A stretch of 64,000 nucleotides of DNA from Patescibacteria group bacterium. GTDB taxonomy: Bacteria > Patescibacteriota > Microgenomatia > UBA8517. The notes beneath the pieces were generated by a model. That model did not search any database and was not told the origin of the DNA. It saw nothing but the letters and a program-made list of their open reading frames with translations. Positions 1,028 through 57,637 of this stretch are shown here, piece by piece (positions within the stretch are counted from its first letter, which is position 1; every line of letters begins with the position of its first letter). The position numbers and the translations under genes were made by a program. The DNA lies in contig DATDRP010000006.1 of the NCBI GenBank assembly GCA_035291665.1, positions 74,961 through 138,960 on the forward strand, read 5' to 3'.

Positions 1028-1065
1028 TTGACATTCCTTTAGCACTCGTGGTACATTACTGCTAA
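1028..1065 (+). promoter_or_regulatory. Sigma70-like promoter with CIRCE-like HrcA operator
   Basis: -35 TTGACA at 1028-1033 and -10-like TACATT at 1052-1057. CIRCE is at 1039-1065: TTAGCACTC-N9-TACTGCTAA. The left half is 9/9 and the right half 6/9 against consensus TTAGCACTC-N9-GAGTGCTAA. Sits 90 nt upstream of hrcA. Confidence 0.55.
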
Positions 1066-1155
1066 TATCAGAGTAAAAGAGTGGAAAAGTAGAAGAATAT
1101 AAGATAAGTTTTTGCTTCTACTCTTATACTCTTACGCTCTTCAACTCTTAATCAT

Positions 1156-4890: not shown

Positions 4891-4945
4891 TTAACAAACT
4901 CCCCATAGATTTATATAATTAGCACTTGAGATATTTGAATGCTAA
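4891..4945 (+). promoter_or_regulatory. Second promoter plus CIRCE operator upstream of dnaJ
   Basis: -35-like TTAACA at 4891-4896, then a 17-nt spacer, then -10 TATAAT at 4914-4919. This overlaps CIRCE at 4919-4945: TTAGCACTT-N9-GAATGCTAA, 16/18 to the CIRCE consensus. Confidence 0.6.
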
Positions 4946-5105
4946 TTGCCGTCCTCTTAAAATCCTAGTATCCTAATATCTTAATATCATTCTGAAATAT
5001 GGTTGGAAAATCCGATTACTACGACCCCGTACTGTTCTTACTTGCTCCCAAGTACTACGTGCTTGCGTCGCAAGAGCGAAAATACGGGGCAGGCATTTCT
5101 TGACT

Positions 5106-8278: not shown

Positions 8279-8413
8279 AATGTAATTATACCTTATAGTT
8301 AAAAATTAATAAATCAATTTGTTTGGTAAAGCTTAATTTAATGTAACTCATCTTACGATTTATTGACTCGGAAACGCATTACTTGTACACTATCAGTGGT
8401 TAGAAATGGATGA

Positions 8414-8441
8414 GGTGGGAATTTTGCCCGCCTTTTTTGTT
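8414..8441 (+). terminator. Intrinsic-terminator-like hairpin in the nusA leader (candidate attenuator)
   Basis: Stem GGTGGG / CCCGCC (6 bp with one G-U pair), loop AATTTTG, then TTTTTTGTT. It lies after a TTGACT (8363-8368) ... TACACT (8386-8391) promoter and 90 nt upstream of nusA. Confidence 0.4.
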
Positions 8442-8529
8442 AGTTGGCGCAAAGAGAAAAGCGAAGAGTGAAAAGCAATAAACTTTGTACTTTGAACTTT
8501 TTTCTATGTACTAACGCAAAGCGTTTTAT

Positions 8530-9828
8530 ATGCAGACACCAAGAACAGAATTTGCACAAGCCCTTCGGGCAATCGCAGCTGAGCGGGATCTTGATCCCGA
8601 GGTTATTATTGACACCATTAAGCAGGCAATTGTTGCTGCTTATAAAAGGGATGCCAAAGATCAAGGTGTCGAAACTGAAGAGTTTGAGTATGAAGTTGAG
8701 TTGAACCCCTCAAACGGTGAAGCAAAAGTTTTTTCGTGGCCACTGGAGAAACCCGAAGAGAAAAAAGATGTAACACCCCCCGGTTTCGGAAGGATAGCAG
8801 CCCAAACAGCAAAACAGGTAATTCATCAAAAGATCCGTGAGGCTGAAAAAGGGGCCATTATCAGTGAGTACAGCGAAAAAGTCGGCAGTCTTGTGACGGG
8901 AATGATACTTCGTTTCGAAGGCTCGGACGTTCGTGTTGATCTTGGAAAAACAGAAGGGATAATGCCGGCGTCGGAAAGAGTCCCGAACGAAAGATTAAAC
9001 GCCAATCAAAGGCTGACGTTTTTGCTGAAAGAAATCACAGAAACTCCGAAGGGAAAACTATTAACCCTCTCAAGGTCTGATCCCCAATTCGTTCAAAAAC
9101 TTTTTGCGAGAGAGGTTCCTGAGATCGGTTCGGGAAGTGTTGAAGTGAAAGGGATTGTCAGAGAACCGGGAGTAAGGTCAAAAATTGCCGTGTTTTCGAA
9201 TCAATCAGGAGTTGATCCGGTTGGCTCATGTGTCGGTCAAAAAGGTGTCCGGGTACAATCCGTCACAAATGAACTTGGCGGAGAGAGGGTTGATATTGTT
9301 CCTTTTAATATCGATTTGGTTGAATTTGTCAAAGCAGCACTTTCTCCTGCGGAAGGATTAAGCGTTTCGATCAGCAAAGACAAGACAGGTGCAATTGTTA
9401 AAGCTCCGGAGGACCAGCTTTCCCTGGCTATCGGACGTGAAGGACAGAATGCGCGTTTGGCATCAAAATTGACCGGAGTAAAAATTGATATTGAAGGTAT
9501 TCCCGGAGAGAAAACCCCAAAGTCTGTAGAAAAAGAGGAAGTAAAAGTGAAAACTGAAGAGAAGGCGGATTTGGTACCCTCGGATGAAAAACCGGCTGAA
9601 GAGGCTCCTCTTGCTGGAGAGGCTGATTTACCAACCCAAACACAGCCTATACAAGCTAACGATTCCGCTTCGAACAATTCCGGAAGCGCTCCGTCGGATG
9701 ATCAGGCAGGTAGCGTTACAAGTAATGACAATACGGCAGTCCCACAGGCTGAAGAAACCGCAGACACTAAAGAAGTATCCGTTGACGATTTGAAAAAGCA
9801 GGGAGACGATAAAAAAGACGAAGCTTAA
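8530..9828 (+). CDS. nusA: Transcription termination/antitermination factor NusA
   Basis: N-terminal domain, S1 and two KH domains. Acidic, low-complexity C-terminal tail. No AR1/AR2. Confidence 0.9.
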   Translation: MQTPRTEFAQALRAIAAERDLDPEVIIDTIKQAIVAAYKRDAKDQGVETEEFEYEVELNPSNGEAKVFSWPLEKPEEKKDVTPPGFGRIAAQTAKQVIHQKIREAEKGAIISEYSEKVGSLVTGMILRFEGSDVRVDLGKTEGIMPASERVPNERLNANQRLTFLLKEITETPKGKLLTLSRSDPQFVQKLFAREVPEIGSGSVEVKGIVREPGVRSKIAVFSNQSGVDPVGSCVGQKGVRVQSVTNELGGERVDIVPFNIDLVEFVKAALSPAEGLSVSISKDKTGAIVKAPEDQLSLAIGREGQNARLASKLTGVKIDIEGIPGEKTPKSVEKEEVKVKTEEKADLVPSDEKPAEEAPLAGEADLPTQTQPIQANDSASNNSGSAPSDDQAGSVTSNDNTAVPQAEETADTKEVSVDDLKKQGDDKKDEA

Positions 9829-15638: not shown

Positions 15639-15808
15639 AGTCCCCCGACCTTACTTTCGCACCCATTCGCGATGGAGGATAAAATTCAGTTAAGTTTTTT
15701 TATCCTATTGGAAACCTTTTACTAATTCAACTAACCAAGATGGAGGATGTTACAACAGATTTCAAGAAAACCACCGAGTCTGACTCGGTGGATGAATTGA
15801 ATTCTGAT

Positions 15809-15861
15809 ATGTCATCCTCCTTTAGAGGAAACCCCGCTCGTAAGAGCGGGGAAGATGTCAT
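15809..15861. repeat. REP-like miniature palindromic element, copy B
   Basis: ATGTCATCCTCC at 15809-15820. A small hairpin tcctc/gagga. A perfect 8-bp hairpin CCCCGCTC-GTAA-GAGCGGGG at 15832-15851 with a GNRA-type loop. It ends with AAGATGTCAT, and a T8 run follows at 15871-15878. Confidence 0.5.
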
Positions 15862-39305: not shown

Positions 39306-39337
39306 TTAATATCTTAGTATCATAATATCGTAATATC
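39306..39337 (+). repeat. 4 x octamer tandem repeat (TTAATATC, TTAGTATC, ATAATATC, GTAATATC) immediately upstream of fusA
   Basis: Exact 8-nt period. It ends 10 nt before the fusA ORF. A related 3-unit array is at 4965-4988. Confidence 0.55.
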
Positions 39338-43681: not shown

Positions 43682-44042
43682 ATGAAGTACTTGAAACTGA
43701 AAGATATAGGTGCTTACCGCAGATCATATGCACTTTCAAATTACATTTGGGAATTAGTAATAAAGTGGAACACCTTCACCAAAAACACCATTGGATCACA
43801 GTTTGTCCGAGCAGTAGATTAATGTAGCGGAAGGATTTGGAAAATATTATGTTAAAGATATGATAAGACACTATCGGATTTCTAGGGGTTCAACATTAGA
43901 GTCATTGGATTGGAATGAAAAAGCCAAGAAGCGTAATTTGTTAAATAAGACGGAATACAGTTATATTCTTCAAGAATTACTAAGTCTCCCTCTGGAAATT
44001 AACCAGCTAATTAAATTTACAAAGAAAAACCTAAATCAGTAA
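43682..44042 (+). pseudogene. Disrupted four-helix-bundle protein gene (PF05635-like '23S rRNA intervening-sequence protein' family)
   Basis: The N-terminal part (MKYLKLKDIGAYRRSYALSNYIWELV ... GSQFVRAVD) runs into an in-frame TAA at 43820-43822. The family-typical continuation INVAEGFGKYYVKDMIRHYRISRGSTLESL resumes in the +1 frame, which is the listed ORF 43860-44042. Confidence 0.5.
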
Positions 44043-48996: not shown

Positions 48997-49067
48997 AAAA
49001 ATTAACCTAATTGACCTAATCTGGGAATTAAGTTTTTAGAAATTAGGAATTAGAAATTAGAAATTGG
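48997..49067. repeat. CTAATT / AATTAG repeat array in the rpsC-rplP spacer
   Basis: AATTAACCTAATTGACCTAATCT (+ orientation) followed by TAGAAATTAGGAATTAGAAATTAGAAATTGG (the same motif inverted, ~7-nt period). It shares the 13-mer AATTAACCTAATT with 29414-29426. Confidence 0.5.
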
Positions 49068-57151: not shown

Positions 57152-57154
57152 AAT

Positions 57155-57220
57155 AGAGTCGAAGAGCAGGAGAGTGAAAGAGTAATAAATACTCACGCTC
57201 TTATACTCTTCTACTCTTTT
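57155..57220 (+). promoter_or_regulatory. rpsM leader: purine-rich motif GGAGAGTGAAAGAGTAATAAAT followed by pyrimidine octamer repeats ACGCTCTT-ATACTCTT-CTACTCTT (imperfect long hairpin)
   Basis: The arms are complementary over ~20 nt. The element ends 12 nt before the rpsM ATG. Related elements are at 1070-1149 and 8449-8510. Confidence 0.45.
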
Positions 57221-57232
57221 ACTTTAATTTTT

Positions 57233-57637
57233 ATGGCAAGATTAGCAGGAATTGAATTACAGGATAAAGATCGAGTTTTATATGCATTAACTCAAATAAA
57301 GGGTATCGGCATGCCGTTGGCAAATAAAATAATGAAATCAGTGAAAATGAATCAAGCAAAAAGAGTCAAGGACTTGTCGGGGGACGAACTCAATCAAATA
57401 GCAGGGGAGCTTGAAAATTATAAGATCGAAGGCGATTTGATACGCTCGGTTAGATCCGATATCACTAGACTTCAGCAAACGGGGACTTTTCGGGGAATGA
57501 GACATTCAAGGAATTTACCGGCAAGAGGCCAAAGAACAAGACACAATGCAAGAAGCAAGAGGGGAAAACGAAAGACTGTGGGAGCTTTCAAGAAAGAAAT
57601 GCTGGCCAAAACACAAAAAGATACTAGTTCAGAATAA
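57233..57637 (+). CDS. rpsM: 30S ribosomal protein S13
   Basis: [26 protein letters not shown]. Confidence 0.9.

Follow-up and report, generated by a model that had tools for sequence, protein, structure and literature searches.

Do the leaders of hrcA, nusA and rpsM, genes described as heads of unrelated operons, carry one and the same control element, and if so, at what level is it read? The question is raised by a stretch of 64,000 nucleotides (40% GC) from a Patescibacteria group bacterium (contig DATDRP010000006.1), the whole of which is called the window here. The genome belongs to Candidatus Woesebacteria, in the Microgenomates branch of the candidate phyla radiation, and HrcA-encoding contigs identical to that of the window come from groundwater-type metagenomes. 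An earlier note on this DNA had described a purine-rich motif followed by pyrimidine octamer repeats upstream of the three genes, and had taken it for a common cis-regulatory device. The strings it quoted are all found where it placed them, and the 17/20 identity that it gave for the purine motifs of nusA and rpsM holds with one gap. The leaders of hrcA, nusA and rpsM do carry the same real cis element, which we call type A, and in related genomes this element is again present before these core genes and before others.

A palindrome of phased boxes in three leaders

Each of the three leaders contains one imperfect palindrome of 70–85 nt. The 5′ arm is made up of about four GAG(T/C) boxes and the 3′ arm of about four inverted (A/G)CTC boxes, with a box spacing of exactly 8 nt in both arms; the 4+4 layout was found in 7 of 11 elements. 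The centre varies in length, and the gap between the two arrays is out of phase. Both arms had been seen before, but the 8-nt period of the purine arm had been missed. As GAGT and GAGC boxes recur with this period, the element amounts to a single array present twice, once inverted. In full copies the last box lies 3–16 nt, mostly 3–5 nt, from an ATG that lacks a Shine-Dalgarno (SD) sequence, and the pyrimidine (CUCU) array stands where an SD sequence would be. The earlier note was right that none of the three genes has an SD sequence, but this is not specific to them: an SD-like core precedes 9 of the 54 genes of the window, so that its absence is the norm there.

The pattern CTCTT-N3-CTCTT-N3-CTCTT, with at most one mismatch, has four matches in the window against 0.03 expected from shuffled sequences, and all four lie in the hrcA and rpsM leaders. 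The pyrimidine octamer arrays are therefore highly non-random. Box-array patterns gave no false positives in about 1 Mb of related DNA. Together with the shuffles, this rules out an origin by chance or by purine bias, the outcome against which the earlier note had warned. Its purine consensus, offered for genome searches, did not perform by itself, giving three matches at up to three mismatches where 0.92 were expected, which is not significant.

Each leader folds as a single long interrupted hairpin. The predicted energies are –22.7 kcal/mol at hrcA (1070–1140, z –3.1), –22.9 kcal/mol at nusA (8443–8515, z –3.95) and –29.8 kcal/mol at rpsM (57154–57226, z –5.2), and in no case was any of 200 shuffles as good. 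The arms of the hrcA element form the second-longest inverted repeat of the window. The stems end 6–15 nt upstream of the AUG, and the mean probability of being unpaired from –12 to +12 is 0.47–0.57. The long imperfect hairpin of the earlier note is thus upheld as a fold (z –3.1 to –5.2), but the burial of the initiation region is not.

At hrcA, the 5′ arm (1070–1095; this and all stranded features below are on the plus strand) has GAGT at 1071 and 1079 and a degenerate AAGT at 1087, separated by purine spacers. The 3′ arm (1115–1149) has ACTC at 1120 and 1128, GCTC at 1136 and ACTC at 1144, in exact 8-nt spacing, and its last box ends 8 nt before the ATG at 1156. Upstream is a sigma-70-type promoter (1028–1057), with TTGACA, an 18-nt spacer and TG-TACATT (10/12 matches, with the TG extension); transcription is predicted to start near 1064, about 5 nt upstream of the element. 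Overlapping this promoter is an operator of the CIRCE type (controlling inverted repeat of chaperone expression), TTAGCACTC-N9-TACTGCTAA at 1038–1064, to which no strand is assigned; it is context, outside the repeat. The interval that the earlier note had opened at 1028 does contain the element, but its first part, 1028–1064, is the promoter with the overlapping CIRCE. We take the consensus of CIRCE, the HrcA binding site, to be the inverted repeat TTAGCACTC-N9-GAGTGCTAA located at promoters of hrcA or of dnaK/dnaJ operons. The site at hrcA in the window fits this definition, CIRCE is kept in nearly all orthologous leaders, and the TTGACA/CIRCE layout was found in 50+ relatives. A second CIRCE, TTAGCACTT-N9-GAATGCTAA, lies upstream of dnaJ at about 4919–4946; the earlier note had named neither of the two.

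The nusA element (8443–8515) has AAGAG and CTTTG units with a period of 7–8 nt and lies between a terminator-like attenuator and the ATG at 8530. Clear 4+4-box copies stand at the orthologous place in three related genomes (L006, L008 and L029), and the copy in the window is therefore a degenerate version. Upstream of it, at 8363–8440, are a promoter (TTGACT-17-TACACT) and a terminator-like stem-loop (GGTGGGA-loop-CCCGCC followed by a T run). A promoter of this kind (TTGACT with a TAAAAT-like –10) and the stem-loop recur in most of the 41 related Woesebacteria nusA leaders listed, from loci in the range L006–L058. The stem-loop looks like a transcription attenuator, possibly serving NusA autoregulation.

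At rpsM, the element (57153–57226) fills the rpmJ–rpsM spacer, with GAGY at 57156, 57164, 57172 and 57180 and RCTC at 57191, 57197, 57205 and 57213; its last box ends 16 nt before the ATG at 57233. No promoter was predicted near this spacer. A search for an internal promoter from which a leaderless transcript could again arise showed no consistent –10 at the right distance. A likeness to boxA, the NusB/S10 site (CGCTCTTA at 57196–57203), was set aside, as most boxes read ACTCT and the arm is paired with a purine array. Pfam confirmed the following genes: hrcA (start at 1156), grpE, dnaJ, nusA (8530), infB, infA, rpmJ (57038), rpsM (57233), fusA (39348) and rplP (49081). Rfam gave no match in the window at the gathering threshold, and a tRNA search of the window found none.

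Distribution and conservation of type A

The window was compared with the 53 closest genome loci, all from Woesebacteria or Patescibacteria metagenome-assembled genomes; labels such as L006 and L029 denote loci. About 1.1 Mb of related Woesebacteria DNA was scanned for type A and yielded about 13 copies, which precede the start codons of hrcA, dnaJ, nusA, rpsM and rpmJ across several Woesebacteria. At hrcA and dnaJ they follow CIRCE, at nusA they follow the attenuator, and the others are intercistronic (rpmJ–rpsM, infA–rpmJ). Type A was found at no other position in this DNA, and no copy was found in a convergent spacer or on the upstream side of a promoter. A clear copy is present between CIRCE and the hrcA ATG in the window, L006, L029, L037 and L053, and also in L233, and the 3′ arm only in L051. 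L006 has a further copy before dnaJ, again directly after CIRCE. Among complete Woesebacteria genomes, CP066686.1 has type A at both hrcA and nusA, whereas it is missing from the hrcA leader of CP011214.1 (L043). In metagenome contig L142 type A occupies the infA–rpmJ spacer, the neighbour of the spacer that it fills in the window.

The HrcA tree places type A genomes in different clades, and their sisters lack it (L006 and L007, L029 and L031). In most relatives CIRCE runs directly into the ATG, and hrcA mRNA is therefore leaderless there; at most of the 53 related loci the layout is TTGACA-CIRCE-ATG, with a leaderless or nearly leaderless hrcA mRNA. The nearest known relative, L232 (about 88–89% HrcA identity), has a different hairpin, type B, at exactly the same hrcA position. 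As sister genomes have either no leader or another hairpin family at this spot, we infer that type A is dispensable and replaceable.

Type B has the form CCTTCGACTTCGCTCAG ... CTGAGCGAAGTCGAAGG and is present in the hrcA leaders of L008, L011, L022, L023, L024, L027 and L232, with related copies in L009 (7829–7891), L031 (9905) and L037 (9737). In the hrcA slot type B behaves as a true RNA helix: its hairpins fold more stably on the sense than on the antisense strand, and compensatory changes are seen in 4 of 13 pairs among six sequences. The tests used here are thus able to pick up such a helix in this position.

Two of the hrcA copies, those of L029 and L037, are shared by descent. Their elements are identical at 74 of 80 positions (92%) and their promoter/CIRCE regions at 35 of 40, compared with 53 of 97 four-fold degenerate sites in hrcA and 68 of 143 in dnaK; beyond the promoter, the upstream DNA is too different to align. 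The difference between the element and the four-fold sites has a binomial P of ~1e-13. Of the six differences within the element, four fall in spacers; the loop has one and a box the other. Identity of 92% against about 50% at four-fold sites indicates that the hrcA copy has been kept by purifying selection in the L029/L037 lineage, and judged by this conservation at least one lineage has a functional element. It is absent from L031, although that genome is no more diverged. Over larger distances (the window, L006, L053 and L233) nothing but the boxes and their phase is retained.

Nine well-registered copies have invariant AGAG/CTCT cores, 136 of 144 cells being Watson-Crick pairs. At their two most variable positions, the spacers are segregated into purines in the 5′ arm (A 25, G 22, T 5 and C 2 at 54 positions) and pyrimidines in the 3′ arm (C 23, T 21 and A 10 at 54 positions). 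Neither covariation nor a sense-strand wobble bias is seen in the paired arms, in contrast to type B. The constraint on type A is on box sequence and phase, not on base pairing. Invariant boxes at an exact phase, free spacers and missing covariation speak for a protein that recognises sequence and phase, and against selection of a helix for stability.

A proposed reading on mRNA and its alternatives

We tentatively rank first a reading of type A as a periodic-box element that acts at the level of mRNA and is read by a putative multimeric or multidomain nucleic-acid-binding protein; a DNA array like that of ParG is ranked second and a passive repeat like the repetitive extragenic palindromes (REPs) third. 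Binding by the protein would be sequence-specific and phase-dependent, and would most likely affect translation initiation or mRNA stability. Candidate readers of the CUCU array would be oligonucleotide-binding (OB)-fold proteins of the S1 or cold-shock type. Without the protein, the complementary purine array would keep the CUCU array in the interrupted hairpin. The position of the element favours RNA: every copy that can be placed relative to a promoter is downstream of it, and full copies, intercistronic ones included, abut a start codon that lacks an SD sequence. So does the alternation of type A with type B, a true RNA hairpin, in the same slot. Of the short arrays with a period of 7–8 nt in these genomes, 44% were found within 30 nt of a start codon, compared with 17% of random intergenic windows. 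The invariant and exactly phased boxes are in keeping with the suggestion of the earlier note that a global factor binding RNA or DNA has its target here.

Several observations weigh against action on mRNA. Type A is patchy, with at least its 3′ arm in 7 of 55 hrcA leaders (the window, the 53 genome loci and L233); with 4 of about 42 nusA leaders (the window, L006, L008 and L029) and another element in the nearest relative, it is not conserved across these operon heads. Covariation in an anchored alignment was 0.103 compared with 0.162 after shuffling, 499 of 500 shuffles being at least as high, and paired cells made up 81.3% compared with 84.3%. The two most variable spacer positions have Watson-Crick pairs in 15 of 54 cases against a shuffle mean of 20, with 11 G-U and 13 A-C combinations. 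Wobble transitions in 13 repeat-armed hairpins were equal on the two strands, 39 sense and 39 antisense, and the antisense strand of type A folds as well as the sense strand, its minimum free energy being equal or lower in most copies. As the palindrome is identical when inverted, its orientation relative to the gene is uninformative. The missing RNA-specific signature fits a double-stranded DNA motif just as well. In addition, the selection test comprises one orthologous pair (L029/L037), the transcription starts are predictions, and no cognate binding protein was found in the window by Pfam models for ParG and other ribbon-helix-helix (RHH) proteins, applied to ten open reading frames (ORFs; nine of them small and uncharacterised) with E up to 1.

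By analogy with plasmid partition sites, type A may instead be a DNA operator or iteron array, a real possibility but a lesser one. Eight 8-bp-phased (A/G)CTC boxes, four in each orientation, would be coated by RHH dimers, one per box. The bound array would serve as a roadblock or repressor a short way downstream of promoters, or else as a site of the nucleoid or centromere type. The operator O_F of ParG from TP228 contains eight boxes that are degenerate versions of 5′-ACTC-3′, with 4-bp separators, in direct and inverted orientation, and one RHH dimer for each box (PMC3130281). Type A resembles O_F and the centromere parH of plasmid TP228 in its ACTC boxes, its 8-bp period and its total of about eight boxes, which is the number for full activity in the ParG system (PMC3130281). 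The architecture favours DNA: box, period and number match the ParG sites, with ACTC/GCTC boxes in exact 8-bp spacing and 4+4 in 7 of 11 elements; the two arms are equally constrained, and neither strand bias nor any other RNA signature is seen. The hrcA copy begins about 5 nt past the predicted transcription start, and paired tandem octanucleotides in Geobacter metallireducens have been proposed as protein sites (PMC2700814).

However, an operator would leave unexplained that type A never overlaps a promoter and always abuts a start codon, even between cistrons with no predicted promoter. It is chromosomal, lies in transcribed leaders and is dispersed over several operons, unlike the ParG sites. 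Its spacers are not AT-rich like those of ParG; they are segregated into purines and pyrimidines, with G at 22 of 54 positions in the 5′ arm and C at 23 of 54 in the 3′ arm. The two arrays are out of phase with each other. No parF- or parG-like gene was found nearby, where the neighbours are hrcA, nusA and rpsM, and the arrays are downstream of promoters. The negative Pfam search counts here as well, and among the matches listed no gene family recurs beside related palindromes from metagenomes.

It is unlikely that type A is a passive dispersed palindrome, spread in the manner of a REP, a miniature inverted-repeat transposable element (MITE) or a short tandemly repeated repetitive (STRR) sequence, or made in intergenic DNA by slippage and inverted duplication. 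Such a repeat would be tolerated through self-folding and would have at most generic effects, such as protection of mRNA ends or provision of an RNase III substrate. The patchy phylogeny fits, with sisters that differ (L006 and L007, L029 and L031, the window and L232), as do the shift by one gene within an operon (infA–rpmJ in L142, rpmJ–rpsM in the window), the DNA-level symmetry of the palindrome, the presence of several further repeat-armed hairpin families in the same genomes, and the widespread palindromes of CACAGAGR octamers described below, which among the matches listed occur in all gene-orientation contexts and with no associated gene.

What counts against a passive repeat is above all the conservation between L029 and L037, 92% against about 50% for neutral sites, which includes copy-specific spacers and the loop. 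The boxes are invariant while the spacers drift, whereas neutral decay of a slippage product would affect both. Copies have the boxes alone in common and, unlike MITEs, share no loop or termini and show no clear target-site duplication; they are also confined to start-codon-proximal, transcribed positions. A MITE in particular was rejected: filled and empty sites (L029 and L031, L006 and L007) show no clean target-site duplication, 1 Mb of DNA contained no gene flanked by isolated arms, loops are unrelated and copies are not similar over their whole length. Like REPs and bacterial interspersed mosaic elements, type A is an imperfect palindrome of intergenic DNA that occurs in multiple copies, is co-transcribed, can form hairpins in mRNA and differs from strain to strain. 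REPs, however, are about 35 nt long, have a family-wide sequence and hundreds of copies, lie typically at 3′ ends or between convergent genes, and go with REP-associated tyrosine transposases. Type A is palindromic and multi-copy (three per 64 kb), but its copies share phased boxes alone, every one at the 5′ side of a cistron, and its conservation is at the level of the host.

Strict gating, in which the long hairpin would bury the initiation region until melting or RNase III cleavage turned translation on, is highly improbable. In its favour, the hairpins are stable, they have interrupted helices like those of RNA thermometers, and two of the targets are heat-shock operons beside CIRCE. Against it, the stem does not include the AUG or its flanks, which are about half unpaired across the ensemble; compensatory changes and sense-strand bias are absent; nusA and the ribosomal protein genes are not heat-shock genes; and stabilities from –23 to –30 kcal/mol, taken at 37 °C, would be excessive in cold groundwater.

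Related systems and other repeats

Periodic-box binding on mRNA, which we tentatively prefer, has a precedent in the regularly spaced triplets of trp leaders. The TRAP protein of Bacillus, an oligomer, reads (G/U)AG repeats there that compete with alternative RNA pairing. Type A likewise has regularly spaced GAG triplets in a 5′ leader, but TRAP sites have 9–11 repeats with a spacing of 2–3 nt, whereas type A has four with 5-nt spacers.

Tandem repeats close to start codons are also known. TAACTGA heptamers in Beggiatoaceae, cyanobacteria and Bacteroidetes lie one to a few nucleotides upstream of start codons that lack a ribosome-binding site (RBS) (MacGregor 2015; PMC4679880). They precede fusA, ribosomal protein genes and pnp, and S1, Csp or CsrA have been proposed as binders (PMC4679880). 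Heptamers near start codons occur in Nostoc too. Type A resembles TAACTGA and the cyanobacterial STRR sequences, which are short tandem repeats (two to six copies) a few nucleotides before RBS-less starts, patchy and strain-specific. It differs from TAACTGA in its period of 8 instead of 7 nt, in having a conserved box of 4–5 nt with a free spacer instead of a fully conserved unit, and in always having two inverted arrays able to form a hairpin. It thus has the features of start-codon-proximal tandem repeats (3–16 nt from the start, no SD sequence, patchy) except for the 8-nt unit and the inverted duplication. In the genomes studied here, tandem arrays with periods of 7 and 8 (14 and 9 cases) prevail over periods of 10, 11 and 13 (1, 1 and 0).

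A second precedent comes from Geobacter metallireducens, in which 24 pairs of four tandem octanucleotides lie on opposite strands and a global DNA-binding protein has been proposed (PMC2700814). Class 1 of these sites (GTTGCTYN x4) is like type A in having four octamers with an opposite-strand partner set at variable distance and many copies per genome. The box and the phylum are different, and the Geobacter sites are not reported to be start-codon-proximal and have insertion sequences that insert at a fixed distance.

A metagenome scan for AGAG-N4 x3 ... CTCT-N4 x3 gave at least 120 loci (L112–L231 listed). The dominant family, 83 of the 120 among the matches listed, is tTCACCAC(AGAGRCAC)2AGAG-loop-CTCT(GTGYCTCT)2GTGGTGAa, mostly from GC-rich environmental genomes; this CACAGAGR-octamer family has a GCAGAGAC variant. 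The spacers that contain it are co-directional in 24 cases, convergent in 10 and divergent in 4, again among the matches listed. Clustering of the ORFs that lie up to 3 kb from 109 metagenome palindromes gave no family with more than three loci among the matches listed. Rfam, searched by E-value on 20 related metagenome loci, gave just sub-threshold microRNA-precursor matches, and the literature on CACAGAG-type sequences contained nothing relevant that we found. AAGAGTNN arrays, some with a complementary arm, are present in 53 viral contig stretches, 27 sense and 19 antisense to ORFs by crude ORF calls. At the phage loci L073/L076/L081/L092, L082 and L095, AAGAGTTN arrays adjoin small genes whose products resemble, by eye, four-helix-bundle proteins of the Avd or 23S-rRNA intervening-sequence type. 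In the window, a 60-aa ORF at 43860–44042 has a weak match to PF05635 (E 0.001).

It is conceivable, if somewhat doubtful, that type A is the Woesebacteria member of a widespread and undescribed class of elements. These would consist of two inverted arrays of three to four 8-nt-phased boxes with a lineage-specific box, read by a conserved but unrecognised oligomeric family of nucleic-acid-binding proteins. In SD-poor bacteria of the candidate phyla radiation (CPR) they would give global control of core stress and translation operons at or just before initiation. AGAG/CTCT would be the box of CPR bacteria and phages, CACAGAGR that of soil bacteria and GTTGCTYN that of Geobacter. The box-and-phase grammar and the direct evidence of selection are new; start-codon-proximal tandem repeats and paired octamer arrays were known before, both unexplained.

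CPR bacteria (Patescibacteria) have mRNAs that are mostly SD-less or leaderless and few recognisable regulators, and type A, located at the SD position before chaperone, NusA/IF2 and ribosomal-protein cistrons, bears on both translation start and control. The earlier observation of repeats near starts in Beggiatoa, cyanobacteria and Geobacter becomes a testable binding-site model. The grammar defines probes with four CUCU/ACTC boxes in 8-nt phase, single- or double-stranded, and natural plus/minus genome pairs make phylogenetic profiling for the reader tractable. If a cognate protein exists, it could explain the whole class of widespread octamer-armed palindromes.

Other repeats were seen in the window and its relatives. 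An octamer array, TA(A/G)TATCN, is present as TAATATCN x3 in the dnaJ leader (4966–4987) and as TAATATCN x4 at 11 nt before the fusA ATG (39307–39336). These arrays have the same orientation to the gene and no inverted partner, and no copy was found in related loci. At 49005–49065, AGAAATT / AGGAATT x4 lies about 16 nt before rplP, and upstream CCTAATT x2 is a partial complement that gives a small repeat-armed hairpin. The longest inverted repeat of the window, at 15742–15820, has 39-nt arms that are 77% complementary and 1 nt apart, with no Rfam match. It lies between pnp and a Lon-like AAA+ gene, with another GC hairpin after it, and no 90-nt fold on either strand is more stable.

The dnaJ leader also contains a GC-rich hairpin, GACCCCGTAC ... 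GTACGGGGC (5020–5095); similar sequences are intergenic in L007, L023, L029 and L031, which suggests a further repeat family. Finally, heptamer-based repeats occur within long coding ORFs in L042 (about 11614), L049 (about 16987) and L052 (about 9707). The L052 ORF has IF2-type G-domain motifs (infB), and its repeat precedes the ITFIDTPGH motif. L042 and L049 have different repeat units at one position of a common ORF.

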